Notes: generated by a model not told the origin, from the letters alone. A stretch of 17,268 bases of DNA from Kiritimatiellia bacterium (GCA_045627705.1 JAZQOE010000063.1:1-17268); one strand, 5' to 3'. Counted from the first letter of the stretch, positions 1,802 through 16,164 are shown. Made by a program: numbers and translations.

Positions 1802-2944
1802 TCAACCAAACCGTTTCTTGTTGAAGTCTTCGAACTGCGCCAGCATGGTTGGGGTTATGGAGGAAGGAATGACCGTGCGGGCTTCTTCAAGGTCGGATGG
1901 GACGACGAGCGGATCGCCGCCGGTATCTATGCTGCGGCGGAAGGCTATTTGACAGGCCTTTTTCGCAAGGCCGACGATATCGCTGCCGGAGTACATGGCA
2001 AGCGCCTCCGCCCATGCGTCGAGATCGATCGACTTGTCGATAGCGGCCTTCTTGAAAGCGCGGGCGAGCATTCCGCGGCGGGCGGGGGCGTCCGGGACCC
2101 CGATAAAAATCTTTTCGTCGAAGCGTCCGGTACGGAACACGGCCTCGTCGATCTCCCACGGCTTGTTGGTCGCGCCGAGGATAAGCAGGATATTCGGGCT
2201 GTCCTTGAAACCGCCGACATCGGCGAGGAACTGTGTGACGAGGCGGTTATCGACAGCCGAGGAACTTTCCGTGCGACGCGGGAGAAGGCCATCGATTTCA
2301 TCGAGGAACAGCACGGCGACAGGCTTGTCCTGCGCGGCGTGGATGAGCCGCGACAGTTTCTGCTCGCTTTCGCCGTGCCACTTCGAGCGGATCTGCGCAC
2401 CGGAAGCATAGAAGAACGGAGCGGAAATCTCGTGGGCGATCGCCTTTCCAAACATCGTCTTGCCATTGCCGGGCGGACCATAGAGCAGGACACCTCCGCC
2501 AGGCTTGATGCCGAGTGCCATGGCCTTTTCCGGCTCGCGCATCGGGTTAATCACCATATCGAAAATCGCGGCCTTGGCGTTCTCCATGCCATCGATGTCG
2601 TCGAAAGAAACCCCGGTGTCGGCGGTGACCTGGAACTCGGAATCATCATCGTTTTCCTGCGGTTGGCCGGACGTGGCGACGGCATCGCGTGATTCGCGCG
2701 ACAACGATGCGAGTGCGGACGGCGGCGACAACTTCGCAGTCTTCAGTTTCTCCGCGATTTCAAGCCAGCCTTCCGCGGTCGATACATAGCTGGCGGCGAC
2801 GGGACCAGTCGATTGTCGCGCAAGGGCGAAGCAAAACTCGGCGGCCTTGGCCGCGTGGAAGATCGCCTTTGCATTGTCGCCAGCCTTGATTGCGGACTCG
2901 CAGGCTGATTCGTGTTCGGACTTCTTGTCGGAGAGGAAGCTCAT
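1802..2944 (-). CDS. Vps4-like AAA+ ATPase (meiotic-clade AAA) with an N-terminal MIT-like three-helix domain and a Vps4-type C-terminal helix.
   Basis: 380 aa with an ATG start. Walker A GPPGNGKT, Walker B VLFLDEID, and second-region-of-homology/arginine-finger motifs LGATNKPWEIDEAVFRTGRFDEKIFIGVPD. SKWHGESEQKLSRLIHAAQ closely parallels the Vps4/katanin/spastin SKWLGESEKLV region. The N-terminal ~75 aa (AIKAGDNAKAIFHAAKAAEFCFALARQ...AEGWLEIAEKLK) resemble the Vps4 MIT domain (…EYLDRAEKLK). The C-terminal …MLAQFEDFNKKRFG parallels the Vps4 C-terminal helix …LKKFTEDFGQEG. GC3 is strongly biased. Confidence 0.88.
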   Translation of the reverse strand: MSFLSDKKSEHESACESAIKAGDNAKAIFHAAKAAEFCFALARQSTGPVAASYVSTAEGWLEIAEKLKTAKLSPPSALASLSRESRDAVATSGQPQENDDDSEFQVTADTGVSFDDIDGMENAKAAIFDMVINPMREPEKAMALGIKPGGGVLLYGPPGNGKTMFGKAIAHEISAPFFYASGAQIRSKWHGESEQKLSRLIHAAQDKPVAVLFLDEIDGLLPRRTESSSAVDNRLVTQFLADVGGFKDSPNILLILGATNKPWEIDEAVFRTGRFDEKIFIGVPDAPARRGMLARAFKKAAIDKSIDLDAWAEALAMYSGSDIVGLAKKACQIAFRRSIDTGGDPLVVPSDLEEARTVIPSSITPTMLAQFEDFNKKRFG

Positions 2945-2959
2945 GTCTTGCGGAGGCTA

Positions 2960-3478
2960 TCAGGCCAATAACACGCGCCACAGCAAGGCGGCAACAAGCA
3001 CCAGTATCCATAGCGAAAGCAGGCTTTCCAACAGATACCAGACGCGGCCCAGGAGCAATGCCATCGCATTCGGGCGAGATGCCATGATAACGCCGTTGAG
3101 GAAGGCGAAGACGATGTTGCCAGCGATCGCGACGAGGACGGCCCATATCGTGAAGCGCAGAACCTTGCCGTGGACAACCTTTTTGCCTGGCGCAGCGAAA
3201 CCTGTCTGCAGGAGATTTTTCCAAACGACCGGCTCGGAAGCGAGGCGGTCGGCATAGAGCCCGGCATTCTGCGCCTTCTCTTCCTCGGTCCATTCGACCA
3301 AGGGCTTTGTCTGCATTGGATCAACGGCAGGAATCGCCTTTGCGCAGGCGCCGACGCCGAAAACCGCGAGGACAATTGCCGCTACGCAAGCGGCGACGAT
3401 ACCAATGCGGCGGATTGCTTTTCCGCGGCGATACTTCACAAGGCGTTCCTGAACTTCCTGGTCTGTCATCTCTGCCAT
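2960..3478 (-). CDS. Small polytopic inner-membrane protein of unknown function, encoded between the ESCRT-III-like gene and the Vps4-like gene.
   Basis: The track ORF starts 8 codons earlier on a weak start. I use the ATG at 3476-3478, which is preceded by AAAGGGGAAA 6 nt upstream. Product MAEMTDQEVQERLVKYRRGKAIRRIGIVAACVAAIVLAVFGVGA... has one N-proximal and two or three C-terminal hydrophobic helices. Its stop is 15 nt upstream of the Vps4-like ATG, suggesting translational coupling. Confidence 0.7.
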   Translation of the reverse strand: MAEMTDQEVQERLVKYRRGKAIRRIGIVAACVAAIVLAVFGVGACAKAIPAVDPMQTKPLVEWTEEEKAQNAGLYADRLASEPVVWKNLLQTGFAAPGKKVVHGKVLRFTIWAVLVAIAGNIVFAFLNGVIMASRPNAMALLLGRVWYLLESLLSLWILVLVAALLWRVLLA

Positions 3479-3521
3479 GTTGATTTCCCCTTTTCGACGC
3501 ATGCGATGCGATGGCGGTCGA

Positions 3522-4169
3522 TCATTTGCCGTCGAGGATGCTCTTCACGCGATCCTGGCCGGCGGACACGCGGGCGTCGATTTCCTTGCCGGCGGCGACG
3601 GGTGTCGCGGCGCCACCGATTTCGGCGGCGACCTCCTGTTCGAGCTGGGCGCCGAGATCCTCCATGCTGGGTATGTAATCCTTGGCGGTACCCGTTGCGC
3701 CCTCCATCTCCTTGTTGTACATCTTTTCCCAGAAACGGTCGCCATCGACCTGTTCGCCGAGGAGGTCCTGGGCGGTATCGAAGACATCCATGACCTTTTC
3801 GGGGTCGATGTTCACGACCTTGTTCAAGGCTCCAAGGGCGTCGGCGAACTGGGCGTCGGAACCCGCGACCTGCATCTTCGTAATGTACTGTTCGAAGATC
3901 CAGCGCTTCTGCTCGAGCTTCACCACGAGCGCCTGCGAGGCGCGGTAGCTGACGAGGGCGCGCTGGGCAGCGGCCTTCTCGCCGTTTTTCAGCGCCTCGC
4001 GGGCGGCGTCCCAACTCTTTTTCGCCTCTTTTTCGAGTTCCATCTGGCGATCCTTCACCGAATCCACGGCCTTTTCGGCGTCGCGGAAGGCATGGCGGCG
4101 CTCGCGGCGCTCCTCGCGTCTGCGTTCGGATGGTGACTTGAAGACGTTGAGAATGTCGGCGATATTCAT
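3522..4169 (-). CDS. ESCRT-III / Snf7-family protein (Snf7 and CHMP4-like helical hairpin with an acidic C-terminal tail).
   Basis: 215 aa with an ATG start and a GGAGTG Shine-Dalgarno. The core KNGEKAAAQRALVSYRASQALVVKLEQKRWIFEQYITKMQVAGSDAQFADALGALNKVVNIDPEKVMDVFDTAQDLLGEQ aligns by eye with the Snf7 and CHMP4 region TKGNKvmAknALkkKK...LE...eqqL...E.A....E...AM..GAKAMK..H..mDIDKVDEtMDEIrEQ. The C-terminal DYIPSMEDLGAQLEQEVAAE is acidic and amphipathic, like an ESCRT-III MIM region. The composition is coiled-coil-rich and is not PspA-like. Confidence 0.75.
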   Translation of the reverse strand: MNIADILNVFKSPSERRREERRERRHAFRDAEKAVDSVKDRQMELEKEAKKSWDAAREALKNGEKAAAQRALVSYRASQALVVKLEQKRWIFEQYITKMQVAGSDAQFADALGALNKVVNIDPEKVMDVFDTAQDLLGEQVDGDRFWEKMYNKEMEGATGTAKDYIPSMEDLGAQLEQEVAAEIGGAATPVAAGKEIDARVSAGQDRVKSILDGK

Positions 4170-4224: not shown

Positions 4225-5388
4225 TCAAGGATTGACTGGCACGGCCGCCTTCGGCTGCATGTTTTCATCGCCGGACACGAGGCTCATCAGCCCCGATGCG
4301 TCGATGCCGAGCGAATCGACCATTGTGCGGTTGGACTCCAGGAGATTGCGGAGGCGTTCGACGGAAAGCGGGTGCGTGCGCGTCGGGACGTCATCTACGC
4401 CGGCTGTTTCCTTCATCGCGAAGAAGAGTTCCCAGAACAGCCTGCCGACAAAGGTAGCCGTGGCCGCAGAATCATTTTCCCCGATCGTGGCGTTGATCAT
4501 GGTCGAAGCAAACGAATCCGCCTCGCGCTCCTGGTTGCGCGAGATGTCGAGGTTGTCGTTGATGGTGGAATCGCTGGAATCAAGGTGGCCGAGGACATGG
4601 TGGCCGATCTCATGCGAGAGGGTGCCGGCGACCATTCCCCCGGAAATAGCCTCCATGCCAGACATGAAACTTGGATCTCCGAGATCGGCGGCGCTGATGC
4701 CGCTGTCAATCAAAATGGAAATCGCGTCTTCCTTCGGCATCCTGCCAATCGAACCGATCAGTCCGACGAGCCGTTCGAGGCATTTGGAATCCTCGCCAAG
4801 CGCCATCCTGCGGGAATCCGCCGCTGATGCGCACCCGACAAGCCTGGCGAAATTCCATGCACCGGCGTTGAATTTGATAATCCGGCAGATTTCGCCGCTG
4901 GAATCATCCTTGCGTTTCGTTGCGAACGCATTGATTTCATCGTTATCGTTGTATTCAAGGCGTATGGAGTCGGCGATCGGCTTATAGATCTGATTCTTGG
5001 AAACGGCGTCGTTTGCGATCAGGCTTCCGAATATTTCGGCGAGTCTCTCGTGCGGGGCGTCGAAAATGGGGCCAAAGACCCCGTACTGTCCATTGTCGCT
5101 TGCGCTTCCGGCATTATTCTGCGCCTCCGTTCCGGTGGTCTCGCCTGACGGCCGCGGGCAACGGCCGAAAAGAGGCATTAGCCAGCATCTGACGCCAAAG
5201 AATGAAAGGAACACCAGTACAAGCGCTATCAGGGAGAACCACAGCCAGAATGTGCCGTTGCCGACCTTGCGCTGGCGGGAATATGGCATGGGAGTATCCA
5301 CTGGCGAGGCGGTGTGCGTCGTGCCAAGCCGACGTTCATATTCCTGCTGGAAGATTTCCTTGCGGGTCTTTTTCGGTTGTTCTGCCAT
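4225..5388 (-). CDS. Membrane-anchored HEXXH zinc metallopeptidase. The catalytic motif resembles the ImmA/IrrE (M78, DUF955) or M48 families.
   Basis: 387 aa with an ATG start and a GGAGTGAA Shine-Dalgarno. An N-terminal TM helix (WLWFSLIALVLVFLSFFGV) is followed by HEIGHHVLGH and, ~25 aa on, SRNQEREADSFA (Glu third ligand plus EA(D/N)xFA). This spacing fits ImmA/IrrE-type metalloproteases, although M48 has a similar SR..E.eADaFA motif. Confidence 0.7.
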   Translation of the reverse strand: MAEQPKKTRKEIFQQEYERRLGTTHTASPVDTPMPYSRQRKVGNGTFWLWFSLIALVLVFLSFFGVRCWLMPLFGRCPRPSGETTGTEAQNNAGSASDNGQYGVFGPIFDAPHERLAEIFGSLIANDAVSKNQIYKPIADSIRLEYNDNDEINAFATKRKDDSSGEICRIIKFNAGAWNFARLVGCASAADSRRMALGEDSKCLERLVGLIGSIGRMPKEDAISILIDSGISAADLGDPSFMSGMEAISGGMVAGTLSHEIGHHVLGHLDSSDSTINDNLDISRNQEREADSFASTMINATIGENDSAATATFVGRLFWELFFAMKETAGVDDVPTRTHPLSVERLRNLLESNRTMVDSLGIDASGLMSLVSGDENMQPKAAVPVNP

Positions 5389-5461: not shown

Positions 5462-6061
5462 TTAGAACACAAAACCGAGAATCGGCGACTGGCGGCCGCT
5501 GCCGGACTTGTTCCAGAGGCCGATCTGGAGCCCCATGCCGCATTCCGCGATGTTGAGGATGCCTATCTGGAGGCCGTTCAGCTCCTTTGTCCTGTTCACA
5601 AACCCGCCGATCGCGATGCCGCTGAAACTCTCCGACTTGTTGCCGAGGACATTGACGGCCAGACCACCGGCGTCGCGGTCGCATTCGCCGAACAGCCCGA
5701 GGTCGATGCCGAACATATCGACTGGCTTCGCGCCGATGTTCGGGAAGCTGAGGTTCACGCGGACGCCATAGACCGAGCAGTTGTCGAGCGGCGGGACGGA
5801 GAGCGGTCCGACCGTCAGCGCAAACGGCGATGTCGTCTCCTCCAGCACGACTGGATCGGCTACGACAGCGGTGGCGACAGGCGCGGAAAGATTGATTGGC
5901 GAAACAGGCACCACTGGCAATGGCGCCGGGGCGACAACTACCGATGGCGCAGCAGCACCGCCATTATCGACCGAACCGCGACCGAACGGGGCGTACTCCG
6001 CATCGGCAAAAGCCATGCAGGCCGCGACAGAGGCCATGGCCGCAAACAAGATATTCTTCAT
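5462..6061 (-). CDS. Secreted protein of unknown function, paralog 1. Signal peptide, conserved GLQIG-repeat C-terminal domain ending in Phe, possible small outer-membrane beta-barrel.
   Basis: The track ORF 5462..6328 over-extends. I use the internal ATG at 6059-6061, giving MKNILFAAMASVAACMAFA (signal peptide). The C-terminus ...ELNGLQIGILNIAECGMGLQIGLWNKSGSGRQSPILGFVF is shared with the next gene. Confidence 0.7.
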   Translation of the reverse strand: MKNILFAAMASVAACMAFADAEYAPFGRGSVDNGGAAAPSVVVAPAPLPVVPVSPINLSAPVATAVVADPVVLEETTSPFALTVGPLSVPPLDNCSVYGVRVNLSFPNIGAKPVDMFGIDLGLFGECDRDAGGLAVNVLGNKSESFSGIAIGGFVNRTKELNGLQIGILNIAECGMGLQIGLWNKSGSGRQSPILGFVF

Positions 6062-6102
6062 GACAAGTTCCTTCAAATGCGCCGGCATGCGGCGTAACCG
6101 CA

Positions 6103-6669
6103 TTAGAACACGAAACCGAGGATCGGCGACTGGCGACCGCTGCCGGACTTGTTCCAGAGGCCGATCTGGAGGCCCGAACCGCAATCGGCGATGTTGATGA
6201 GGCCGACCTGGAGGCCGTGGAGTTCGTGGGTCCGATTGAGGAATACCGAAATCTGGATGCCTTCGAACACGCCGGGGCAGTCGTTGTCGAGGACATTGAC
6301 CCAGAGTCCGCCGCCATCGCGGCGGCACTCGCCGCTGAGGCCGACATCGACCGCGTACATGTCTATCGGCACATCGGTCACCTGCGGGATACCAAGATTC
6401 ACTCCGACGCCGTATAGGTTCAAGTCGTGGAGGAAAGGAATGCTGACAGGCCCGATTGTCAGGGCGAACGGGGTGAATCCCTCGCCGAAGTAGTCAGAAC
6501 GCGGGACAACCGGGGGATTCTCCGGATAAACAGTTTCATAGCCGGCACCAACCTTGTGCGGGGATACCAAGCTGGCGTCTCCAGGCCTGACTACCGAATA
6601 AGGGGCGGCTTGGCAGGCCGCGGCCAGCACGAAAAATAGCGAGACAGATGCGAACAACGACTTTTTCAT
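6103..6669 (-). CDS. Secreted protein of unknown function, paralog 2. Signal peptide, same conserved C-terminal domain.
   Basis: 188 aa with an ATG start. MKKSLFASVSLFFVLAAACQA is a signal peptide. The body is conserved with paralog 1 (SPFALT.GP.S.P......YGV.VNL.......D.....D.GL.GEC.RD.GGL.VNVL.N...GI.I..F.NRT.EL.GLQ.G.LNIA.CG.GLQIGLWNKSGSGRQSPILGFVF). Confidence 0.75.
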   Translation of the reverse strand: MKKSLFASVSLFFVLAAACQAAPYSVVRPGDASLVSPHKVGAGYETVYPENPPVVPRSDYFGEGFTPFALTIGPVSIPFLHDLNLYGVGVNLGIPQVTDVPIDMYAVDVGLSGECRRDGGGLWVNVLDNDCPGVFEGIQISVFLNRTHELHGLQVGLINIADCGSGLQIGLWNKSGSGRQSPILGFVF

Positions 6670-6736
6670 GGTCTATTCCTTTGCTTCGTCGGTTTTGCCG
6701 CATGACCGTCCAAGCGGCCATGCGGCATGGGATTGA

Positions 6737-7618
6737 TTATAACGGGCGGTGGACGTTAAGCTCTTCGATCGTGTAGATGCGGTTCATTATGCCGTCGGGG
6801 AAGAAACTGCGGTCGTAGAGCACATCGACCACGATCGTGCGCGAGGCATTGCTTGTCGAAACGACATGGCAGTCATAGACGCCATCGAGACGTGTGAGCA
6901 CGTCGCAGAAAAGCGACGGGTAGTCGGAATGGCGGTCAAGAAACCAGGCGTTGGCGATAGTGATGCGGCTGATTTCCATCTGTCCGGCCACCTTGAGGCA
7001 GCTTTCGGCCGCCCACTTCGAAACCGAATCGGCCATCTTGGAGGAGACATCGCGGATAGCCTCTTCGCGGGAACGGGCCTGCTCGCCCTGCGCATCAAAC
7101 AGACGATGCGCCACGACTCCGGCCTCCTTGCGGCCGTTAACCGCGTTGACCTCTGGACTGCGGGTCACGGAGAAATCAATCTCGCCCCTGTAAACAAGGC
7201 GCGAACCGCGGGAATTGCGCTCGGCGCACTTGACCTTGCCATAGACGAGCAATTCGGCGGGGACATCGTAAACGACGCTGAAACCCTGGCCCGACAGCAC
7301 ACCCTCGACATCCGCGCGAAGGTAGTCGCAGAGCGTGGCGGCATCGTCGTCGACCGGTTCGAGGCTGAGGTACGTGCGGAGCGGAACGACCTTGGCTGTC
7401 GCCGTGGCCTGGACTTGCGTGCCATTGGTCTCATCTACCGGCTGGGCGCTGACGGCGACGTATTGTCCGCCCTGGCCAACATATTGGGTGCCGCCAGTGA
7501 CGTGCTGGTCGCCTCCAGCGTAGTTGACGTACGGATAGGCGGTGCGGCAGCCAGACAGGGCCATGGCGGCGGCAACGGCCGCGAATGTCATTGCCCAAAT
7601 AGAAACCTTGCTGTTCAT
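6737..7618 (-). CDS. Lipoprotein of unknown function.
   Basis: 293 aa. MNSKVSIWAMTFAAVAAAMALSGC has a lipobox (LSGC), followed by a Gly/Gln/Tyr-rich linker and then a globular domain. GC3 is coding-like. My by-eye coordinate for the start differs from the track by 1 nt, so I use the track. Confidence 0.75.
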   Translation of the reverse strand: MNSKVSIWAMTFAAVAAAMALSGCRTAYPYVNYAGGDQHVTGGTQYVGQGGQYVAVSAQPVDETNGTQVQATATAKVVPLRTYLSLEPVDDDAATLCDYLRADVEGVLSGQGFSVVYDVPAELLVYGKVKCAERNSRGSRLVYRGEIDFSVTRSPEVNAVNGRKEAGVVAHRLFDAQGEQARSREEAIRDVSSKMADSVSKWAAESCLKVAGQMEISRITIANAWFLDRHSDYPSLFCDVLTRLDGVYDCHVVSTSNASRTIVVDVLYDRSFFPDGIMNRIYTIEELNVHRPL

Positions 7619-7643
7619 TTCAGTATTCCTTTCACTTGTGTTT

Positions 7644-8861
7644 TCAGCGGACTCGGATCATCGTGTGCGTGACGAACCATACGATTGCCAGGACGACGAC
7701 CAAGAGGATGAAGTTACGCGGTGTGATGACGGAGCGGAACCACGTGGCGAGCAGTTCAAGCCAGTCTGGGCTATAGACACCGCGGCCCTGGGCGGCGGCA
7801 ACGACCTTGAAGCTGTTGCCGATGTCGCGGAACTTGACGTCTGTCACGACCTCGTACCTGGTGTTGTAGCCCGGGGTGGTCGTAAGGGTCAAGCGGTCGA
7901 GGTTCTTGCCCGTCGGGTCAAGGACGATCGTTCCGTTGTCATCGGAGACGGTGACGCTCCCGTTCAAGACAGCCATCCGGCCATCGCGGACATTGGGACC
8001 GAGCTTGCGGGTCAACTGATCAAGCACCGAGTCGCTGAACTGGATGTTTGTCCCGGCGCGCTGGCGGAGGAAGCGGGCCATCATGCGGTCGCTTGCGCCA
8101 CCATTCGGAAGGTCGTACACCACGATGCTATTCTGGCGGCCCTGCCGCGTGACCTCGTTGAGGAACACCTGCGACATAGCGCGCCCAAGAGGCCCGTCGA
8201 AGGGAATCAGGAACGAGCCATAGCCATCGACATCGGCCGGGATGTTCCTGACGAGTTCCTCGGCCGCCAATTCGACGGCGCGCCGCCATTGGGCAGGGAG
8301 TTGCTCGTTGTCTGGACCCATGTCGTCGTATGTGCCTTCGACCGTGCCGCTCCACAGCAGTTCGGATGTCTCGACCTTGTAGAGCCGGAGATTGACGCGG
8401 ACGATCGTCCTGAAGGAATTTTCCTGGGCGCCGACAACCTGGCCGAGCAGGAGTGCGTCGGCGAGTTTCAACTTGCCGATGACGGGGAGGACATTCTTGG
8501 CGTAATCGGTGAAATCAGATGCCTGGTCGAAGACCTTGTCGATATCCTTCCACTCCTCGCGGTCGCTGTGAAGTACGAATCGGAAGTCGGCGGGGACTTG
8601 TCCAAGCGCACCCTCGAAGATGAGGGAGATGTCGGAATCGGATGCGAACATGCCCTGGCTATCGGATGTCATCAACCTGGTGAAAGCGATGTTTTTCGTG
8701 CCCGCGACGCGCGGGTCGAGAGACATCTGCATGATTGCCTGAAACGCCGCGTCTTCGACGGCGTATTGCGCCTCGAGCTGCCCGGCGACAACCGGAGCGG
8801 CCGCGAACAGGGCGGCTGCAACGCAGCCTTTGAACCAACCAATGGTCTTTGTGAAGTTCAT
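7644..8861 (-). CDS. Secreted, C-terminally membrane-anchored protein of unknown function.
   Basis: The track ORF starts 13 codons earlier. I use the ATG at 8859-8861, which has an AGGAAAGG Shine-Dalgarno. MNFTKTIGWFKGCVAAALFAAAPVVAG is a signal peptide. A ~360 aa soluble region ends in a hydrophobic anchor NFILLVVVLAIVWFVTHTMIRVR. Confidence 0.7.
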   Translation of the reverse strand: MNFTKTIGWFKGCVAAALFAAAPVVAGQLEAQYAVEDAAFQAIMQMSLDPRVAGTKNIAFTRLMTSDSQGMFASDSDISLIFEGALGQVPADFRFVLHSDREEWKDIDKVFDQASDFTDYAKNVLPVIGKLKLADALLLGQVVGAQENSFRTIVRVNLRLYKVETSELLWSGTVEGTYDDMGPDNEQLPAQWRRAVELAAEELVRNIPADVDGYGSFLIPFDGPLGRAMSQVFLNEVTRQGRQNSIVVYDLPNGGASDRMMARFLRQRAGTNIQFSDSVLDQLTRKLGPNVRDGRMAVLNGSVTVSDDNGTIVLDPTGKNLDRLTLTTTPGYNTRYEVVTDVKFRDIGNSFKVVAAAQGRGVYSPDWLELLATWFRSVITPRNFILLVVVLAIVWFVTHTMIRVR

Positions 8862-8909
8862 GGTGTTAACCTTTCCTATTTGACAGAAACAGACAAGCAT
8901 TCAAGAAAT

Positions 8910-9857
8910 TCAGCCCAGTTCCGGGCTTTCGGTTATGCCGTCGCGGTCGCGTGACGGCCTTTCCGGCATTGTTTCATCGGCCGATGCGACGGGAGTGGCG
9001 GCCGGGTCGGCGGCGGGGACATCCCACGCGCCATCGGAATCGAACTCCGAGAGCGCGGCGTCGAAGGAACCGTCGTCGCGATCCCTCCTGCGGCCGGCCT
9101 TGTCGAGGTCGCCAAGAGCATCCTGGAGATCCTCGGCATCATCGGACTTCTCCTCGATGGTATCGGCAAGACGGTCCACCATGTCCTCGTCGAGCGGGCC
9201 GCGAAGCCCATGGGCGAGCACCTCCATGAAACGACCCTTCACGCTGGCGATCGACTTCTCGTTCTCGCAAAGCAGCGCGTATTCCCGTTCCAGGCCCTTG
9301 TACTGGGCCATGAGCGCCTCGAGTTCCATCTTGAGGATGCGGCGGCGCACTGGCGAAGCGGCTTCGTACGCCTTCTTCTTCTCGACAATCCCGCGATAGG
9401 CGGCGTCGAGTTCGGCGGAGGCGGCGTCGCGGCGGCGGCGGTTGCCGTCGAGGGCGCCGTTGAGCGAAACCAGCATCGCTTCCGGCGACCGATCCACGTG
9501 GATCTTCGACCAAAGGCTGCGCAGTCCGCCGCCGACCTTGCCGGCGAACGAGACGGCCTCCGCCATCGCCTTGGCGGCGAGTTCCTTCGGGGCGGACTTG
9601 ACCAGCTCGGCCTCCCGCAGGTCGCGCTCGCCCTCCGCCCTTTCGTTTTCCTTGTCCATCTTCTCCCCTTCCTTTCGGTCCGCCGCCTTCGGCGCCTTCC
9701 CGTCTTCCTTCCAGCCATGCGCGGGGCAACGGCCATTCCCGCCATGCGCGTGGAGCTGGCAGAACACGGCCTCGCAACCCGGTTCCGCGCAATGGCCGCC
9801 AATCGCCCAGCGATTGGGAAGCACCTGTTGGCAGATACAACATCTCGGTTCAGCCAT
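8910..9857 (-). CDS. Zinc-finger protein whose central and C-terminal region is ESCRT-III/Snf7-like (second ESCRT-III paralog).
   Basis: The track start is TTG. I use the ATG at 9855-9857, which has a GGGGTG Shine-Dalgarno. The N-terminus MAEPRCCICQQVLPNRWAIGGHCAEPGCEAVFCQLHAHGGNGRCPAHGW carries 8 Cys/His ligands (treble-clef, B-box or FYVE-like spacing). A Lys/Glu-rich linker follows, then helices RRRILKMELEALMAQYKGLEREYALL...GPLDEDMVDRLADTIEEKSDDAEDLQDAL that parallel Snf7 alpha2-alpha5 (…mDIDKVDEtMDEIrEQvElgDEIsDAI). The tail DDGSFDAALSEFDSDGAWDVP is acidic. Confidence 0.6.
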   Translation of the reverse strand: MAEPRCCICQQVLPNRWAIGGHCAEPGCEAVFCQLHAHGGNGRCPAHGWKEDGKAPKAADRKEGEKMDKENERAEGERDLREAELVKSAPKELAAKAMAEAVSFAGKVGGGLRSLWSKIHVDRSPEAMLVSLNGALDGNRRRRDAASAELDAAYRGIVEKKKAYEAASPVRRRILKMELEALMAQYKGLEREYALLCENEKSIASVKGRFMEVLAHGLRGPLDEDMVDRLADTIEEKSDDAEDLQDALGDLDKAGRRRDRDDGSFDAALSEFDSDGAWDVPAADPAATPVASADETMPERPSRDRDGITESPELG

Positions 9858-9935
9858 TGCGCACCCCACTGTAAACAACGTTTTTGTTATTTACATAATG
9901 ATGGTTTATCATAATTGTTGTTTGTCTGTCCATAT
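9858..9935 (-). promoter_or_regulatory. AT-rich island (~30% GC) between the FHA paralog and the zinc-finger ESCRT-III gene. Candidate internal promoter or regulatory spacer.
   Basis: A sharp compositional drop in an otherwise ~65% GC locus. It is the only intergenic gap in the cluster longer than 75 nt. No convincing hexamers were identified. Confidence 0.25.
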
Positions 9936-11276
9936 TTATTTTTGTTTATTTTTCTTATATTTCTTATACACGGGATTGTATTCCGTCACGCGAATGAGTC
10001 CCGCAGCACTTTGGAATTCCATCCCTGGTTCAAGAACGCCCGAACCTACGTTGCCGGTACTCCAGAAGAAGCCGCCGGCATCCGACCGCGCCACGATGAA
10101 ACCAGCGAGCGCAGGGATGACGACGCCGAAATCGAAGCATGACCAAAGGGCAACGAAGACCTCCGGATAGTCGTTTTTCTGCTGGATTACCACGCATGGC
10201 CTGATGCCGGTGCCGCACCAATCGCGCGATGGCACCTGGCAGACCGGGCACAGGCCGGCCGCCATCGGACTGTAGTATGCCACGGAAAGGGAAAAACTGC
10301 TTTCGCAACCCGTCGCGGGCGTGATTACGCCGGAATTGTGCGCCGCGTCGAGTATGCAGGCCTCCCCGGAAATGCGCGTGCCGTTCCAGAAGGTGCCGCA
10401 TGATGATGCATCCTTCAGGATCACCGAGGATCCCGCGCCGCAGATTATGCAGTGGTGGCGGCTGATCCTGCTTGATGCCGCATGCTCCTCGGCCGTCGTC
10501 TGGCATTTCTCCTGGAGAACGATCGTGTTGTCGCGGTGGCGCCCAATGGTGATTTCCTCCTTCGGGATAAGATGAATCAGAGTGCCGGCGATTTCAAGCG
10601 TGAGGTCTCCGCTGTAGGCGGGCGCCGTCTGCGCCGCCGCACATTGCGCCTGGGGCATGCTCGTCAGCTCCAGCGGCACGAGACGATAGGCGCGCGCTTC
10701 GCCATCGACCACCCTGCGCAGTTCCTCGAAGGAACTTTCGCCGGAATGCCGCAGCGAAAGGTCCTGTATGGCGTCGGCGGCATCCTGGGAAAGCCTGACG
10801 TCGGCAGCATGGCCGCATTGGATGTCGTTTCGGATGTTGAATACTATGTTTTCGGCGCACTTGCCGACCTCTTCTGAACGCGCGACGAAAAACGAGACAT
10901 TTCCGTCGAAGCTGTACGCTACGCCGTTCAGCACGAATGAAAGGATGATGTCCAGGGCATGGACGCCGGCGATGCCCGCGTCGATCTGCACGTTGTACTC
11001 GCGCATCGCCGCGAGAATCTGCCAGTTCTTGCTGTATTGCCTTCCGCTGCCCTGGAAACAGAGCGACAATGTCACATCCGAAAGGAATCCCTGTGCCTGG
11101 ATTGCCGGGCCGATGCGGAAGCGGAGGATGCCACTGCCGCGTTCGATGAGAAAGCAAAGGCTGTCGATCTCAAGCCTGACGGGGCAGTCGCCCGCCTGTG
11201 CCGCGAGCGGACTCCCGCATCGGTCGCAGAACTCGCCGGTGGCGGCGTGGCTTCCACATTTTGGACAAGTGGCCAT
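9936..11276 (-). CDS. Zinc-ribbon / FHA-domain protein, paralog B. N-terminal zinc ribbon, central FHA domain, conserved Cys-containing C-terminal domain of unknown function, Lys-rich tail.
   Basis: 446 aa with an ATG start. The N-terminus MATCPKCGSHAATGEFCDRCGSP is a zinc ribbon. FHA-like ITIGRHRDNTIVLQ...SRISRHHCII...GSSVILKDASSCGTFWNGTRISGE fits GR..N.IVL...SR.HA.I...D.S.NGTfvNG. The C-terminus WCGTGIRPCVVIQQKNDYPEVFVALWSCFDFG...GGFFWS...LEPGMEF...VTEY is shared with paralog A. The terminal VYKKYKKNKQK is encoded in the AT-rich island. Confidence 0.8.
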   Translation of the reverse strand: MATCPKCGSHAATGEFCDRCGSPLAAQAGDCPVRLEIDSLCFLIERGSGILRFRIGPAIQAQGFLSDVTLSLCFQGSGRQYSKNWQILAAMREYNVQIDAGIAGVHALDIILSFVLNGVAYSFDGNVSFFVARSEEVGKCAENIVFNIRNDIQCGHAADVRLSQDAADAIQDLSLRHSGESSFEELRRVVDGEARAYRLVPLELTSMPQAQCAAAQTAPAYSGDLTLEIAGTLIHLIPKEEITIGRHRDNTIVLQEKCQTTAEEHAASSRISRHHCIICGAGSSVILKDASSCGTFWNGTRISGEACILDAAHNSGVITPATGCESSFSLSVAYYSPMAAGLCPVCQVPSRDWCGTGIRPCVVIQQKNDYPEVFVALWSCFDFGVVIPALAGFIVARSDAGGFFWSTGNVGSGVLEPGMEFQSAAGLIRVTEYNPVYKKYKKNKQK

Positions 11277-11303
11277 GGCTTTAGTGGCTTAACTCCGCGG
11301 GAA

Positions 11304-12809
11304 TCACACGCCGGACTGGCGGTAGGGCGTTACCGCGACCGGTCCGTACGCCGAGTTGAGGGACATTCCGGGAACCAGGCGCCCGACATGGTGCTGCGGC
11401 GAACTCCATGCGAAACCGCCATCGGCACGCTTGATCCAGATTCCTTCCAGTCCGGGATCCGCATTGCCGAGGTTGAAGCATGACCAGAGCGCGACGAAGG
11501 TCTCGCGCGGGCCGTCGTTCGAGACGATGCGCAAACAGGGGCGACATCCGCCGCCGCACCATTCGGGTTTCGGGCCGACATCGCACGAACGGCAGAAATC
11601 GCAGGGCATGAAGGCGCGGATCCCGAAGGAAAACACGTCGTCGCCCGGCATTCCGCCAAGGAACACATCGGCTCCATCGTCGCCGATGAAATCGGTGATG
11701 TCCGCGGCGCCTTCGACATGGAGGACGCCCCAGGCCGCCGCGCCGCGGGCGCAGTCGAAGTATGTCCCGCGCGTCGATGCGATGCGCCCGCCGCGGTCGT
11801 CGACGGAGCCGTCGTGGAGCATCACGCGGCCCCCGTCGCAGTCGAAGTAGCAGTGCATGCGGCTCACCTTCCTCGTGTCGAAGCGCTCGCGGGCGTTGCC
11901 GAGCGTCCCCGGACGTACCACGATGGTATTCGAGCGACTGCGGCCGAGAAGAATCCGATTGCGCGCCACGAGGTGTATCATTCGCCCCTCCACGTTGAGG
12001 GTGATTGCGTCGGATGAATCATGCGGCGCGGCCGCATCGCCGAGTTCCTGCGCCCTGAAAGCCATGGCCTGGGGATCGCCTGCGGCCCCGGCCATGCGGA
12101 CGCTGGAAGAAGCCGCGCCAACGGCTCCACCAGCCGCGTAATTCGCGGTGAAGGCAGCGGGCGACACTCCGATAGACGGGCCGACACCCGGACGCGGCGA
12201 CCTCATTGGCATGGCCACGACTGGCTTGACCGGCACGCCCGGGACAAACGCGGGATGCGGGACGACCGCGACCGCCGGGGGAACAACCGAAACCGCCGGC
12301 ACCGGCGCGATAGCCAGCGAGGGATGCGACACGACCACCTGCGGCGCAGCGGGATTGACAACCGTCACTCCTGGATGGACTGGCGCCGCGGGCGGAACCG
12401 CGGAAACCACGGCCGCAGGCGGAGGCGGCGCGGCTACGACCGGTGCAGACCCGGCGAATGGCGGCGGAACAGGGCCGGGAATGGCGGCTGCGGCGCCAGG
12501 GATCACGGCCGCCGGAACCACGCCGGGGGCGACCGGAGCGACCACCGCCTCTGGAAGGGGGCTGGGCATCACGGTGGCGGCATGGCGCAGATAGCTATTT
12601 GACGGCGCAACCTGTGGCACGGCCGGCATCTCCGGAACAGCCGGAAGTCCAACCGGCGAGACAGCCGCCGCGACTTCGCCAGACATGGCATCCACCGGAG
12701 GTGTCGCATCCGATGCCGCGGAAGGCGCGGGCATCGCCAGCGGCGCACCGCAGCGCTCGCAGAAAGCGCCTGGCGATACATTGAATCCGCATTTGGGGCA
12801 CTTGACCAT
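11304..12809 (-). CDS. Zinc-ribbon / FHA-domain protein, paralog A. N-terminal zinc ribbon, ~180 aa Pro/Ala/Val-rich disordered linker, FHA domain, same conserved C-terminal domain.
   Basis: 501 aa with an ATG start and a GGGAAG Shine-Dalgarno. MVKCPKCGFNVSPGAFCERCGAP is a zinc ribbon. FHA-like ILLGRSRSNTIVVRP...VSRMHCYFDCDGGRVMLHDGS...STRGTYFD. C-terminus WCGGGCRPCLRIVSNDGPRETFVALWSCFNLG...GGFAWS...LVPGMSL...VTPY (~45% identity to paralog B over ~85 aa). Confidence 0.8.
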   Translation of the reverse strand: MVKCPKCGFNVSPGAFCERCGAPLAMPAPSAASDATPPVDAMSGEVAAAVSPVGLPAVPEMPAVPQVAPSNSYLRHAATVMPSPLPEAVVAPVAPGVVPAAVIPGAAAAIPGPVPPPFAGSAPVVAAPPPPAAVVSAVPPAAPVHPGVTVVNPAAPQVVVSHPSLAIAPVPAVSVVPPAVAVVPHPAFVPGVPVKPVVAMPMRSPRPGVGPSIGVSPAAFTANYAAGGAVGAASSSVRMAGAAGDPQAMAFRAQELGDAAAPHDSSDAITLNVEGRMIHLVARNRILLGRSRSNTIVVRPGTLGNARERFDTRKVSRMHCYFDCDGGRVMLHDGSVDDRGGRIASTRGTYFDCARGAAAWGVLHVEGAADITDFIGDDGADVFLGGMPGDDVFSFGIRAFMPCDFCRSCDVGPKPEWCGGGCRPCLRIVSNDGPRETFVALWSCFNLGNADPGLEGIWIKRADGGFAWSSPQHHVGRLVPGMSLNSAYGPVAVTPYRQSGV

Positions 12810-12827
12810 GACGGGCTTCCCTGCCTG

Positions 12828-14762
12828 CTACTTGATATTGTTGAACTGCTGCGGCGGAGGAAGCGGCTGAATAGCCTTCTTCGCCGCCTCGTTGATCGGG
12901 GAGAGAAGCGTTCCCATGCGGCTGTCCTCTCGGTCGTAGGAATCGTCGTGGAGATCCTCCACCTTCTTTACGAAGCGTTCCGCGTCCTCGCGCGTCTTGT
13001 CCAGCTCGACCTGCTTGAGCCTTTCGAGCGCAACCGCGGCGGCGGGACTCTGGGCCGCGAGAGCCGCGAGTATCTGCTCCGGCGTGCGCGAGTTGTCGGA
13101 GGCGCGGAGCGCGGTGAGCGCGCCAGCGGCGATCGGGTCGGCGTTGTTCGCGGCAGCCTCGGCGAGAATGTGCTCGACATCGAGGGCGGCGTCGCGGTCG
13201 AGCTTGGCCTTCTGGAGCAGGCGAGCGCGAAGGGCGTCGTCATCGACATCCATCAGGCGTTCCTCGAGGGACATGCCGTGGCGGCGGTCGGCCTCGGCCT
13301 GCCTGTAGTCGAGGTTCACCTGGTTCTTTTCGCGGCGGACGCCGATCCACTCCTTCGCCTGGCGGACCTGCTCGTCCGCCGACATCCCGGAAATCTGCGT
13401 GGCATTCGTGGAGTTCTTGAGCGCCTCGCCGCGGTTGAAGTCCCCGATCTTGCCGGCGTTGGCGATGCTGTTATCGACCGCGCGGTCGCCGAGCCCGAAC
13501 TGGTGTGCCTGGTCCTCGTCTTCCACGGTGTAGGCGTGGTGGCGGAGTTCGTCGGCATGGCCGAGGCGCTCTATGTCGAGCATGCGCTGGTAAACTTCGG
13601 CCTCGTGCGAGCGCTCGCGCTTGAGGACTTCCCACTCGTGGTTGATTTCCTCGACCGTCAAGCCATATTCGTTGTTGAGGTCGAGGATGTAGCGCCGCAT
13701 GTCGTCGGCGTCCTTGTACTGCGACATGTTGCCGTGATCGACCGTCTTGCGAAGCGCGTCCCGGTATTCCTCGTAGCGGCGCTGCTGGTCGAGCGTGCGG
13801 CCATAGCCATACTGGGTCTCGTTGTCCTCAACCGAATCGCCGGCATGGGCCGTGACGTTCTGCTCGATGGTGGCGGCGAGCTTCTCGTATTCGTCGCCGG
13901 TGAATTCGGCGGAGGAAACGCGCGCGACTTCGAGTCCGCTGGCGGCCAGGTCATCCGCAACAAGGCGCGTCATCGACTCCTGCAGGCGGATGCGGCGCTG
14001 CGGGTCGCGGACAAGGTCGTCGAGCGTGGTCGCGGTACACATCGAATCGACGGCGAAGCGCATGACGGATTCGAGCCGTGCCGAAATCTCCGCCAGCGAC
14101 GTGCTGCGGTCAGACTTCATCAGGTTGGCCACCAGCGCCCGCGCGGAATCCTTGTCGCCGCGGAAACGGAGTATCACCTCGCCGTAGAATTCGATCGGAT
14201 AGCGCTCGGCTGTCGAAAGCGCCTCGATGTGCACTGGAAACGCCACTTCGGCGGCATCGACCAGCACCACTGAACGCGGCGGCGGATTGCCGAACCAGTT
14301 GATCTTGTGCGCCAGGCTGTCCGGGGCATGGCGGCCGCTTTCGAGGATGCCGCGCACCTCTCCGCCATCCATGATGATCGCGAGCGTTCCTTCCTGGATC
14401 TGGAGGCCGTCCTGGAGGATGCGCTTCACGTCGCCGATCTCGAAGCGCTGGGCGAACATCCCTGGCTCCTTGCGCCATACGCCCCCGGCCATCGCCGAAC
14501 GGTCGTCAGGGTAGAGCGGGGTGTTGCAGTGCGGGCAGAAGCGCGAGTCGTTGCCAATCCACTTGCCGCACGACGGACAGCGCCACCAGCCGCCAGGCGC
14601 AGGGCTGCCGCAGCGGTTGCAGAAGCGGGCGTTCTTCCTCACCCGGTTGCCGCAGCGCGGCCACTTGGGATCAAGCTTGGCCGCCTCGAGGGCATCGCCC
14701 GAAAGCGCCCTCTGCGTGTTTGGATCGATCAAGGCGTCGCAACGGTCTGTAAAGATTCCCAT
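12828..14762 (-). CDS. Double-zinc-ribbon SPFH (band-7 / flotillin-like) protein with a long C-terminal coiled coil.
   Basis: 644 aa with an ATG start and an AAAGGGA Shine-Dalgarno. Two CxxC...CxxC ribbons: RCGNRVRKNARFCNRCGSP and RCPSCGKWIGNDSRFCPHCNTP. The SPFH-like core is IQEGTLAIIMDGGEVRGILESGRH...SVVLVDAAEVAFPVHIEALSTAERYPIEFYGEVILRF...ARALVANLMKSDRSTSLAEISARLESVMRFAVDSMCTATTLDDLV...RIRLQESMTRLVADDLAASGLEVARVSS. A ~330 aa Glu/Arg/Ala/Leu-rich coiled coil follows. Confidence 0.8.
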   Translation of the reverse strand: MGIFTDRCDALIDPNTQRALSGDALEAAKLDPKWPRCGNRVRKNARFCNRCGSPAPGGWWRCPSCGKWIGNDSRFCPHCNTPLYPDDRSAMAGGVWRKEPGMFAQRFEIGDVKRILQDGLQIQEGTLAIIMDGGEVRGILESGRHAPDSLAHKINWFGNPPPRSVVLVDAAEVAFPVHIEALSTAERYPIEFYGEVILRFRGDKDSARALVANLMKSDRSTSLAEISARLESVMRFAVDSMCTATTLDDLVRDPQRRIRLQESMTRLVADDLAASGLEVARVSSAEFTGDEYEKLAATIEQNVTAHAGDSVEDNETQYGYGRTLDQQRRYEEYRDALRKTVDHGNMSQYKDADDMRRYILDLNNEYGLTVEEINHEWEVLKRERSHEAEVYQRMLDIERLGHADELRHHAYTVEDEDQAHQFGLGDRAVDNSIANAGKIGDFNRGEALKNSTNATQISGMSADEQVRQAKEWIGVRREKNQVNLDYRQAEADRRHGMSLEERLMDVDDDALRARLLQKAKLDRDAALDVEHILAEAAANNADPIAAGALTALRASDNSRTPEQILAALAAQSPAAAVALERLKQVELDKTREDAERFVKKVEDLHDDSYDREDSRMGTLLSPINEAAKKAIQPLPPPQQFNNIK

Positions 14763-14808: not shown

Positions 14809-15168
14809 TCACTTCCTAGTCTCATTCTTGCCGGCATTTCCCGCGCAATCCTTGCAGAGGCGCAGGCCAAGACGCGTCCAGCAGTCATTGCAGATCGGCG
14901 CCGCGCAGCCATCGCCCTGGCAGTGGTGCTTCAGCGACACGCGGCTGCGATAGACGTTGCCGCAGATAGAGCATTCGCCACCGCCGGAATTCTCGCGCTT
15001 CTTGTCCTCGAGATACACATCGAGGTCGGCGCGTGAAACCCTGTACAACTTTCCAAGGCGAAAAGCCGGAAGTTCGCCACTCCGCGCCAGTTTGTAAACG
15101 AGCTGATAGGTCACGCCGAGATAATCGGCGACCTCTTCAAGGCTCATATACTCTTTATCGGTTGGCAT
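14809..15168 (-). CDS. Excisionase/MerR-superfamily HTH DNA-binding protein with a C-terminal zinc-ribbon domain. Likely regulator and first gene of the cluster.
   Basis: 119 aa with an ATG start and an AAGGA Shine-Dalgarno. SLEEVADYLGVTYQLVYKLARSGELPAFRLGKLYRVSRADLDVYLE matches the excisionase-family HTH (HTH_17-like). C-terminus CSICGNVYRSRVSLKHHCQGDGCAAPICNDCWTRLGLRLCKDC. Confidence 0.8.
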   Translation of the reverse strand: MPTDKEYMSLEEVADYLGVTYQLVYKLARSGELPAFRLGKLYRVSRADLDVYLEDKKRENSGGGECSICGNVYRSRVSLKHHCQGDGCAAPICNDCWTRLGLRLCKDCAGNAGKNETRK

Positions 15169-15399: not shown

Positions 15400-16164
15400 G
15401 TGAGATTGTACACAATATTTCGCTCCGCCCTTGTGGCGGCACTTGCGGCGTCGGCGAACGCCGCGATCCAGTTCGACGCATCGTTTGCGCCGTCGCTGGA
15501 GACGAACGGAGATGATGTCGTCTCGTGGGTCTCAACTTCCGGCGAAGCCGCGATCCATCCATGTCACGGCGCGACGAACGGCTGGACCTTGGCAAGGATC
15601 GCCGAGAATGGCGTGGACTTTTCCGGCACGCCCGCCGGGGTCGCTTCCCCGCTCTGCTTCCAGGACTCCGCGACGGGGATGGTCGGACGCATGTTTGCCG
15701 TCGCCGACTGCATCGCGCCGTCGGCGCTCTCGACCATTGTGGACGCGCCCGTGCCGGTGCGCGTCTCCGCGCCGCTTTTCGACGCCGACGGGTTCACGGT
15801 CGAGGCGACAAACGCGCTTGGCGTCGCACATGTCGAGCTGGACGGCGTGGAAGGCGGGGCGGTCGATGCCGGGCGGCATGTCGTCGAAGTTGCCTTCGAC
15901 GAACCCTGCGAGATGCGCGGGATTTTCATTGGCGGATGCCCCGCGACGCCCGCGTGGCGGCGCTCGTGGAACGGGACGATCCGCGAGGTCGTGCTTCTGC
16001 CGCCGGGAGCGACGGGCGAGGAGCTGGCGACCGTGCGGGCGTATCTCGCGAAGAAGTGGGATCTGGCGAGGCGTCCGTCGGGGTTCGCAAACGAGCTATT
16101 CATCGCGAAGCGCCTCGGACTCCGCGTGGGGAGCCTCTACGGCTCGGTACTGATGGTGAGGTAG
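15400..16164 (+). CDS. Secreted protein of unknown function.
   Basis: No in-frame ATG. The start is GTG (15400) or TTG (15406). (M)RLYTIFRSALVAALAASANA-AIQ is a signal peptide with an AXA cleavage site. GC3 is strongly biased. The stop lies 3 nt before the next ATG. Confidence 0.6.
   Translation: MRLYTIFRSALVAALAASANAAIQFDASFAPSLETNGDDVVSWVSTSGEAAIHPCHGATNGWTLARIAENGVDFSGTPAGVASPLCFQDSATGMVGRMFAVADCIAPSALSTIVDAPVPVRVSAPLFDADGFTVEATNALGVAHVELDGVEGGAVDAGRHVVEVAFDEPCEMRGIFIGGCPATPAWRRSWNGTIREVVLLPPGATGEELATVRAYLAKKWDLARRPSGFANELFIAKRLGLRVGSLYGSVLMVR

Follow-up and report, generated by a model that had tools for sequence, protein, structure and literature searches.

A conserved gene cluster of PVC bacteria that probably pairs a Snf7-type ESCRT-III protein with an AAA ATPase built like Vps4

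The 17,268-nucleotide stretch of DNA analysed here (the window; Kiritimatiellia bacterium, GCA_045627705.1, JAZQOE010000063.1:1-17268) carries a conserved gene cluster of the Planctomycetes-Verrucomicrobia-Chlamydiae (PVC) superphylum. The core of this cluster probably consists of an ESCRT-III protein of the Snf7 type and, dedicated to it, a single-ring AAA ATPase with the build of Vps4. An earlier reading of the DNA, made from the sequence only (the sequence-only reading), had placed three consecutive minus-strand genes at this position, and the listing of open reading frames (ORFs) bears this out: 1802-2944 (380 aa, the ATPase), 2960-3502 (180 aa, a small membrane protein) and 3522-4169 (215 aa, the Snf7-like protein). 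For the middle gene a start at 3478 is better supported than one at 3502; an AAGGGG sequence lies 8 nt 5' of 3478, and the homologue in locus L001 begins MSEMSHKEV, in agreement with that start. The Snf7-like gene is preceded by a GGAG Shine-Dalgarno sequence, only 15 nt separate the stop codon of the membrane-protein gene from the AAA start codon, and the three-gene arrangement is operon-like.

The 215-aa protein gave no match in a single-sequence PDB search; its assignment comes from its family, for which one search gave 344 clusters (90% identity) and an exhaustive search 175 representatives (50% identity). A profile was built from 83 representatives whose identity to the window protein ranges from 20 to 66%, and its best PDB match was yeast Snf7 (E 3.3e-11). 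Heimdall ESCRT-IIIB from the Asgard archaea was matched at E 2.8e-7 over nearly its full length, and CHMP3, CHMP1B and CHMP2A at 4e-4 to 3e-3, the CHMP1B and CHMP3 alignments again being near full-length, while no PspA or Vipp1 chain appeared at E<=1. Moreover, 52 of the 83 representatives individually match Pfam Snf7 (PF03357), PspA_IM30 is not among the Pfam families listed for the 83, and the NCBI pipeline labels some homologues 'Snf7 family protein'. The AlphaFold2 (AF2) model of the window protein has helices at residues 13-61, 65-100, 105-119, 129-158, 169-184 and 193-212, the canonical ESCRT-III helix order from alpha0 to alpha6, in which an alpha1-alpha2 hairpin comes before alpha3, alpha4, alpha5 and the flexible tail, with a predicted local distance difference test (pLDDT) score of 72 overall and 80-87 in the core. 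When the model was used in a Foldseek search, nearly all top matches were structures of the ESCRT-III superfamily, PspA and Vipp1 also being present; their E-values were weak (0.04-1), as is usual for helical hairpins. Judged from these profile and fold matches, the protein is assigned to the Snf7 branch of ESCRT-III and not to the PspA branch, which agrees with the ESCRT-III/Snf7-like label that it had been given before.

Three elements of this protein are kept family-wide. The N-terminal motif has the consensus M-G-x-L-F-K-S-K-K-E-R in both the 83 representatives and 28 genomic loci, and resembles the MGLFGK-type N-termini of eukaryotic ESCRT-III. An acidic alpha5 reads P-S-x-D-E-L-M-x-x-L-E-x-E-V-A. 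Following a variable Gly/Ala linker, the terminal helix has the consensus I-x-x-G-(R/Q)-E-R-(L/V)-K-K-L-L-E-G-K, with G204, Q205, R207, L212 and K215 invariant or near-invariant, and this motif is also present in 27/27 complete loci. We take the first of these elements to correspond to the alpha0 membrane anchor of eukaryotic ESCRT-III, the second to its autoinhibitory/packing helix and the third to a MIM1-like motif. The terminal helix is a candidate MIM1-like motif that may dock onto the ATPase.

In Pfam, the 380-aa ATPase matches AAA (PF00004, 1.4e-34, one domain) and AAA_lid_3, and nothing else. Its AF2 model (mean pLDDT 80) starts with a three-helix bundle and a disordered linker of variable length (residues 78-103), continues with the single AAA cassette and closes with a helix at residues 365-379, so that the modelled domain order is that of Vps4. 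The helices of the N-terminal bundle (2-20, 24-43 and 47-69) have pLDDT values of 89-98, and the domain is kept in 21 loci as well as in a Planctomycetia homologue. Like CdvC, the ATPase has no eukaryote-type beta-domain insertion. The motifs to which the sequence-only reading had pointed, EGWLEIAEKLK, SKWHGESEQKL and QFEDFNKKRFG, are all present and are conserved across the ATPase family. The pore loop, SKWHGESE, is of the aromatic K-W/Y-x-G type and aligns with SKW(M/L)GE(S/A)E of Vps4 and CdvC, and the C-terminal helix can be aligned, without a column out of place, with the helices ending in FG or FK that close Vps4, CdvC, katanin and spastin. A GATNxPW motif is common, in the sampled alignment, to the ATPase family, Vps4, CdvC and katanin only.

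The locus scan took one genome per species and yielded the 28 loci, all in PVC metagenome-assembled genomes (MAGs) labelled Kiritimatiellae, Lentisphaerae, Victivallales or 'Verrucomicrobia', one of them on a 6.1-Mb chromosome. The AAA gene lies on the same strand as the Snf7 gene and no more than 4 kb from it in 22 of the 25 loci with enough sequence, and in at least six loci the two genes are 7-23 nt apart with no gene between them. Thus the neighbourhood survey that had been proposed as a check found the pair to be syntenic in most related loci, and the claim that the Snf7 gene is operonic with an AAA ATPase stands. Each of the two proteins is, moreover, a member of a large conserved family, so that the pair is more than a chance find. 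Genomic association with ESCRT-III genes is operational criterion ii for Vps4 (Makarova et al. 2024, PMC10936438), and such an association is what these 22 loci and a Planctomycetia locus display.

Distant members of the 215-aa family are annotated from Omnitrophota and Planctomycetia. In the Planctomycetia MAG JAUNBK010000040.1 (L029:906-5461), the Snf7-like protein is 24% identical to that of the window, and the AAA gene is preceded by a row of four tandem coiled-coil genes (~210-230 aa), two of which are clear Snf7 paralogues. The AAA protein of this locus (381 aa) aligns with the window ATPase over its full length, N-domain included, at 32% identity, and carries SKYVGESE, GATNNPW and RPGRLG. 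The pairing persists to 24% and 32% identity in Planctomycetia and is therefore old and maintained; the two genes are evolutionarily linked. A homologue search seeded with the Planctomycetia Snf7 protein returned the query alone. Elsewhere in this locus, one of the two other coiled-coil proteins ends DFERLLKEYE, resembling the terminal RLxxLL motif, and two multi-transmembrane proteins are encoded downstream, one of them weakly like the window protein encoded at 7644-8900 (E 0.002).

A series of results weighs against the proposed pairing of a Snf7-type polymer with a Vps4-like motor, and most of these concern the ATPase. By raw similarity its AAA core is closest to Cdc48-type proteins: the NCBIfam scores are 196 bits for CDC48 (cut-off 803), 178 for PAN and 166 for CdvC, BLASTP scores are 173 for Cdc48 D1 and 171 for p97 D2 versus 130-145 for Vps4 and CdvC, the top 50 Foldseek matches are all p97, Cdc48 or AFG2, and the best sequence and Foldseek matches also take in VAT. 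The Foldseek check that had been suggested thus favoured ESCRT-III for the Snf7-like model and p97-type proteins for the ATPase. A ranking of PDB matches was rejected as a classifier of the ATPase, since a protein with two domains is credited with the scores of both. The second region of homology (SRH) reads FR-T-G-RFD (RTGRFD), an arginine finger of the Cdc48/PAN/FtsH type. FR(T/S/P)GR(F/L) is found in the window ATPase and all PVC homologues, and the two-residue insert that it contains is absent from all of the Vps4, CdvC, katanin and spastin sequences in the sample; the meiotic-type SRH (RR-RF, without the two-residue xG insert) is therefore not what the ATPase has.

The two extensions of the ATPase add to this. 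No Pfam match to MIT (PF04212) was obtained with the whole ATPase, with 20 and 21 isolated N-domains or with the Planctomycetia N-domain, and an N-domain profile run against the PDB gave nothing beyond noise (NDM-1 at E 0.5) and no MIT. When the N-domain was compared by hhalign with an MIT alignment that had been validated by its retrieval of all MIT entries of the PDB, the probability was a weak 5-11% (best 10.8%, E 0.0028), with all three helices in register and WLEIAEKLK opposite YLDRAEKLK. Assignment as MIT by sequence was rejected on the Pfam and PDB profile results, and the domain that the sequence-only reading called MIT-like is a predicted three-helix bundle, MIT-like by topology and position. 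Vps4_C (PF09336) has no Pfam match in the ATPase at E<=0.1. The C-terminal helix, earlier taken as a Vps4-type marker, is matched equally by p97 D2, VAT D2, AFG2 D2 and Msm0858 D2, and the SKW pore loop is not exclusive to Vps4 either, VAT D2 having SKWVGESE; both were rejected as Vps4 signatures. The argument that this combination of features defines Vps4 rather than a generic AAA protein therefore does not hold. The sequence-only reading had named two outcomes of profile searches that would count against it: placement of the ATPase extensions outside MIT and Vps4_C, for which the Pfam and PDB profile searches gave a match to neither family, and placement of the 215-aa protein with PspA/IM30, which was not seen.

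There are also points on the ESCRT-III side. Taken alone, the window protein reaches 22.7 bits against Pfam Snf7 (E 8.7e-5), below the gathering threshold of 27.3. The MIM1 consensus is (D/E)xxLxxRLxxL(K/R), and only three of its five signature positions (R, L, L) fit the terminal helix. Finally, three loci (L005, L007 and L014) carry a Snf7-like gene with the terminal motif and no AAA homologue within 10 kb of it; there the ATPase may be encoded elsewhere, or the Snf7-like genes may be paralogous copies. In L007 a pair of helix-turn-helix (HTH) and SPFH genes lies ~9.6 kb downstream of the Snf7-like gene.

Because PDB rankings mislead, a tree was built from sequences in PDB alignments: CdvC from three species, D1 and D2 of p97/Cdc48 and of VAT, and D2 of Msm0858. 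To these were added yeast Vps4, human VPS4A, katanin, spastin, PAN and FtsH; the sampling does not extend to euryarchaeal or Asgard Vps4. In this neighbour-joining tree of 26 AAA domains with bipartition bootstraps, which is crude in method and sampling and to that extent a further point on the debit side, the PVC family was monophyletic with the Planctomycetia member included (90-93%), and it grouped with Vps4, CdvC, katanin and spastin in 84-94% of replicates. The latter four were monophyletic without the PVC family in 68-71%, and grouping of the PVC family with any Cdc48 domain reached at most 9%. The family thus falls beside the Vps4/meiotic clade, as its sister, and not inside it. Nor does the ATPase have the tandem D1-D2 cassettes and double-psi barrel of Cdc48, p97 and VAT; its cassette is single and its N-domain helical. 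We read the ATPase family as a probable sister lineage of the Vps4/meiotic clade that has retained an ancestral SRH. The earlier description of the ATPase as Vps4-like is upheld by the predicted domain layout, GATNxPW and the sister position, but not by the Cdc48-type SRH or by its branching outside the Vps4/meiotic clade: the protein is Vps4-like in architecture and affinity, and its membership of Vps4 itself is unproven.

By homology with characterised ESCRT systems, a cycle of the ESCRT-III/Vps4 type is the best-supported model for what these proteins may do. The N-terminal hydrophobic/basic motif would attach the ESCRT-III protein to the inner membrane on the cytoplasmic side, and the alpha1-alpha5 core would mediate its polymerisation. 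The terminal amphipathic helix, on its flexible Gly/Ala tether, would dock onto the N-terminal three-helix domain of the ATPase, and the ATPase, presumably hexameric, would thread and extract subunits through its aromatic pore loop (K-W-H/Y-G). Such extraction could drive turnover of the polymer and hence constriction, scission or repair of the membrane, while a zinc-ribbon SPFH scaffold, two FHA proteins (in a phospho-dependent manner) and the coiled-coil and HTH proteins of the cluster might position or regulate the polymer.

The facts about the ATPase core could also be accommodated by a single-domain Cdc48-like unfoldase acting in envelope or protein quality control, perhaps feeding the zincin encoded in the same cluster, with adjacency to the Snf7 gene reflecting co-regulation in a stress regulon. 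The best hidden Markov model, BLAST and Foldseek matches, the RTGRFD motif, the undetected MIT, a C-terminal helix common to D2-type domains and the zincin gene within the cluster would all suit such a role. It nevertheless seems unlikely. The synteny is tight and deep, with direct adjacency of the Snf7 and AAA genes, often at <25 nt, across lineages as divergent as 24% and 32% identity, and this together with the tree, which groups the ATPase with Vps4/meiotic ATPases rather than with any Cdc48 domain, disfavours the unfoldase. In addition, where Cdc48 has a double-psi barrel the ATPase has a small helical bundle as its N-domain, only 4/28 loci have the zincin close to the pair, and the ESCRT-III tail bears an invariant terminal helix of the kind that Vps4 recognises.

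An island for phage defence or abortive infection, or another mobile island, inserted beside ssrA and carrying membrane-acting and protease effectors, is a good deal less probable still. The cluster does end ~470 nt from the transfer-messenger RNA (tmRNA) gene, with a GIY-YIG ORF just past it, the HTH_17 protein resembles PADLOC mad1, the zincin is weakly like Lit, CapP and U41, and the AAA protein gives generic IetA matches. The core proteins, however, match no defined PADLOC system (the ATPase scores 91 bits against IetA and 196 against CDC48), the Snf7, SPFH, FHA and coiled-coil proteins have no PADLOC match, no relatives were found on IMG/VR viral contigs, and no integrase was seen in the window. 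The gene content is kept across Kiritimatiellia, Lentisphaeria and Victivallales MAGs, with the core in Planctomycetia, which looks like lineage-wide inheritance. A defence-island or viral origin was rejected on the PADLOC and IMG/VR results. It is very improbable, lastly, that the 215-aa protein is a PspA/IM30-like stress protein or a generic coiled coil with a merely compositional Snf7 signal. Its sub-threshold Pfam score and the weak Foldseek E-values, with PspA and Vipp1 among the fold matches, would allow this, but the family profile matches Snf7 at 3e-11 and runs near full-length on Asgard ESCRT-IIIB and CHMP1B/3, and the findings on PspA and Vipp1 chains, PspA_IM30, the 52 Pfam-positive members and the NCBI names given above all run the other way. 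A Snf7-type ESCRT-III protein with a dedicated Vps4-like-built ATPase is thus the reading that we retain.

The sequence-only reading had treated the three genes as a unit. The Snf7/AAA pair stands, but the small membrane protein is not conserved and the cluster is far larger (Table 1); an accessory set travels with the pair in varying order. For the small membrane protein, three transmembrane (TM) segments are predicted, and it is without a match in Pfam, NCBIfam or PADLOC. ORFs for related small TM proteins are confined to L001 and L002, the closest loci. Synteny led to its rejection as a core part, and it is a lineage-specific accessory.

Table 1. Coordinates of the core genes, their elements and the neighbouring genes of the cluster in the window
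Feature	Position	Strand	Basis
Snf7-family ESCRT-III protein, 215 aa, presumed membrane-bound polymer	3522..4169	-	Pfam, family profile, AF2, Foldseek
N-terminal hydrophobic/basic motif, residues 1-12, candidate membrane-insertion helix alpha0	4134..4169	-	Column composition, 83 representatives + 28 loci
C-terminal amphipathic helix, residues 193-215, candidate MIM1-like ATPase-docking motif	3525..3593	-	Conservation, AF2 helix 193-212
Single-cassette classical AAA ATPase, 380 aa, presumed ESCRT-III remodelling/disassembly motor	1802..2944	-	Pfam, AF2, tree, linkage
N-terminal three-helix bundle of ATPase, residues 1-70, MIT-like by topology and position	2735..2944	-	AF2, conservation
C-terminal helix of ATPase, residues 362-380, SSITPTMLAQFEDFNKKRFG	1805..1861	-	Alignment, AF2
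Small 3-TM protein between the two core genes	2960..3478	-	Three hydrophobic segments predicted
Zinc-ribbon + coiled-coil protein, 322 aa	8910..9878	-	Conservation; Pfam; hhalign
Zinc-ribbon + FHA protein 1	9936..11276	-	Pfam FHA 1e-10; N-terminal CxxC pairs
Zinc-ribbon + Pro/Ala/Val-rich linker + FHA protein 2	11304..12809	-	Pfam FHA 2.3e-4, weak zinc-ribbon matches
Double zinc-ribbon + SPFH/Band-7 + long coiled-coil protein	12828..14762	-	Zn_Ribbon_1 1.4e-10, DZR 3.2e-8, Band_7 3.6e-8
HTH_17 DNA-binding protein, Cys-rich tail, first gene of cluster	14809..15168	-	Pfam HTH_17 1.3e-15
Single-TM zincin, HEIGH at residue 259	4225..5388	-	Pfam Peptidase_M48 1.1e-5
Envelope module	5462..8900	-	Lipoboxes, TM segments
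Envelope module: signal- and TM-anchored 418-aa protein	7644-8900	-	
Envelope module: lipoprotein	6737-7618	-	
Envelope module: two tandem paralogous secreted or lipoproteins	6103-6669, 5462-6328	-	

At the head of the cluster, the HTH_17 protein, a likely regulator, is 52-75% identical to its counterparts and adjoins the SPFH gene in ~15 loci; the HTH-SPFH pair precedes the cluster in ~17 loci. No TM segment is predicted for the SPFH protein. One or two zinc-ribbon FHA genes per locus belong to the travelling set, FHA protein 1 being syntenic in ~14 loci and FHA protein 2 being its paralogue with a C-terminal region in common. This shared region, of ~100 residues, is Cys/Trp-rich (WCG-G-RPC...FVALWSCF...) and without a Pfam match. 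Residues ~30-230 of FHA protein 2 form a low-complexity linker of ~200 residues between zinc ribbon and FHA domain, which lifts the local GC content to 0.65-0.69. The zinc-ribbon coiled-coil gene is found in ~20/28 loci, usually directly upstream of Snf7. Comparison of its family with the Snf7-like family gave a weak hhalign match (probability 20%, E 0.0011) with alpha2-alpha4 in register, the best PDB match was the CHMP4B tail at a weak E of 0.19, and in Pfam 2/16 members match Snf7 and 15/16 match zf-CRD. These signals are weak but consistent, and the protein is possibly a second, divergent ESCRT-III-like subunit. The four consecutive cytoplasmic proteins encoded at 8910-14762 (coiled-coil, FHA1, FHA2 and SPFH) each start with a zinc ribbon or CxxC; the repeated ribbons and the Cys-rich tail of the HTH protein look like a shared recruitment module.

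The remaining genes are more loosely associated. The zincin, which is weakly M48-, Lit-, U41- or CapP-like (PADLOC Lit and peptidase_U41 at ~1e-7), has the envelope module on one side and the Snf7 gene on the other. In L015 and L018, too, the zinc-ribbon coiled-coil gene is followed by this envelope module, which is only sometimes found with the pair. Its two tandem paralogues end identically, LQIGLWNKSGSGRQSPILGFVF, and have no Pfam match. As listed, their ORFs overlap, and the downstream copy therefore probably starts at an internal MKNILFAAMA signal peptide.

The bacterial context claimed by the sequence-only reading, from ssrA, lipoboxes and Shine-Dalgarno sequences, holds: ARAGORN places a tmRNA at 976-1330 on the minus strand, that of the cluster, and lipoboxes LAAAC and LSGC occur in the ORFs starting at 6103 and 6737, in addition to the GGAG already described. 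The ssrA tmRNA has the tag peptide ANDMALAA and lies ~470 nt downstream of the AAA gene; the interval (1331-1801) contains nothing but ORFs that look spurious and, at 1456-1470, a terminator-like hairpin. Just past the tmRNA gene, at 540-806 on the minus strand, is a small stand-alone ORF of 88 aa with a GIY-YIG nuclease domain (Pfam 4e-12), which may be left over from a mobile element at ssrA. At the other end of the window, a plus-strand ORF lies at 15400-16164; its 254-aa product has an N-terminus like a signal peptide and no Pfam match, and the stretch after this ORF is very GC-rich (0.69) with many overlapping ORFs.

Among known systems, the archaeal ESCRT/Cdv loci share with the window a Snf7-type ESCRT-III gene beside a single-cassette AAA gene encoding a small helical N-domain, linker and C-terminal helix and, as CdvC shows, no eukaryote-type beta-domain insertion. 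Makarova et al. (2024, PMC10936438) describe FHA proteins and proteins made up of zinc ribbon, SPFH and coiled coil as accessories in the ESCRT loci of haloarchaea and methanogens, and both kinds are present here. The window system differs in its bacterial (PVC) host, in an ATPase that keeps the Cdc48-type RxGRFD SRH, branches outside the sampled CdvC/Vps4 clade and has an N-domain unrecognisable as MIT by sequence, in the zinc-ribbon coiled-coil and HTH_17 genes that it adds, and in that no CdvA and no ESCRT-II-like winged-helix protein were found. With eukaryotic ESCRT-III and Vps4 it has in common yeast Snf7 as best profile match, the MGxLF-type N-terminal motif, the acidic alpha5, the candidate MIM1-like RLxxL terminal helix, and an ATPase whose SKW-x-GESE pore loop and GATNxPW fit Vps4; it is without the beta-domain, the Vta1 module and ESCRT-0/I/II, has one clear ESCRT-III paralogue where eukaryotes have eight or more, and its SRH is not of the meiotic type.

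PspA/Vipp1 (IM30) systems, likewise bacterial, share the ESCRT-III superfamily fold, and the presence of an SPFH/Band-7 partner is reminiscent of PspA with YdjI, an association that PMC10936438 cites. The window protein, in contrast, belongs to the Snf7 branch, its partner is a classical AAA ATPase of the unfoldase type and not the sigma-54 activator PspF, and there are no PspB/C, LiaI/F or Toastrack partners in the window system. Cdc48/p97/VAT and the Cdc48-like Msm0858 of mycobacteria have the highest raw similarity to the AAA core, an RxGR SRH and D2 domains with the same C-terminal helix, but they differ from the window ATPase in cassette number, N-domain and tree position, as set out above.

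The closest earlier work is Ravi et al. (2024, PMC11237479), which describes MIT+Vps4-AAA genes from a number of bacterial phyla, Verrucomicrobia and Planctomycetes among them, with a TPR+6TM protein and not Snf7 as partner, and a signal/TM-anchored divergent Snf7 with a double (inactive+active) AAA. Those contexts, too, tie bacterial Vps4-like or classical AAA ATPases to membrane-proximal partners. The window Snf7 protein, however, is soluble, without a signal peptide or TM segment, its ATPase has a single cassette, and Snf7 is not displaced by a TPR-6TM protein. The PVC Snf7/AAA context was not found in the parts of the representative Table S3 of that paper that the analysis covered, and targeted searches of the available literature found no paper describing it. 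A 2025 review holds that a Vps4-like ATPase appears to be absent in bacteria, so the earlier remark that such a pair would be unusual in a bacterium was apt; the pairing of Snf7 with an AAA ATPase of Vps4-like layout contradicts statements of this kind in current reviews. The PVC system is a real, largely undescribed bacterial ESCRT-III/AAA system.

PVC bacteria have long been debated for eukaryote-like membrane biology, and some of them divide without FtsZ. A broader and tentative idea, which we think doubtful at present, is that these bacteria (Kiritimatiellia, Lentisphaeria, Planctomycetia and Omnitrophota) possess an anciently inherited ESCRT machine of their own, with an ATPase that diverged before the SRH deletion common to archaeal and eukaryotic Vps4, katanin and spastin. 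If so, the ESCRT-III/AAA partnership would be older than the archaeal Vps4 lineage, or would have been exchanged at its root, and the machine would carry out reverse-topology membrane scission in bacteria, for instance when vesicles form, in the dynamics of endomembranes or at division steps that do not need FtsZ. In the ATPase, features of the Vps4 type (the PW motif, C-terminal helix and domain order) occur together with an ancestral Cdc48-type arginine-finger region, and the protein is therefore a candidate Cdc48-Vps4 intermediate that bears on the origin of Vps4. With essentially one ESCRT-III protein and one ATPase, the system could be a simple model for ESCRT mechanics in vitro, and for PVC cell biology the cluster provides a concrete, testable molecular candidate.

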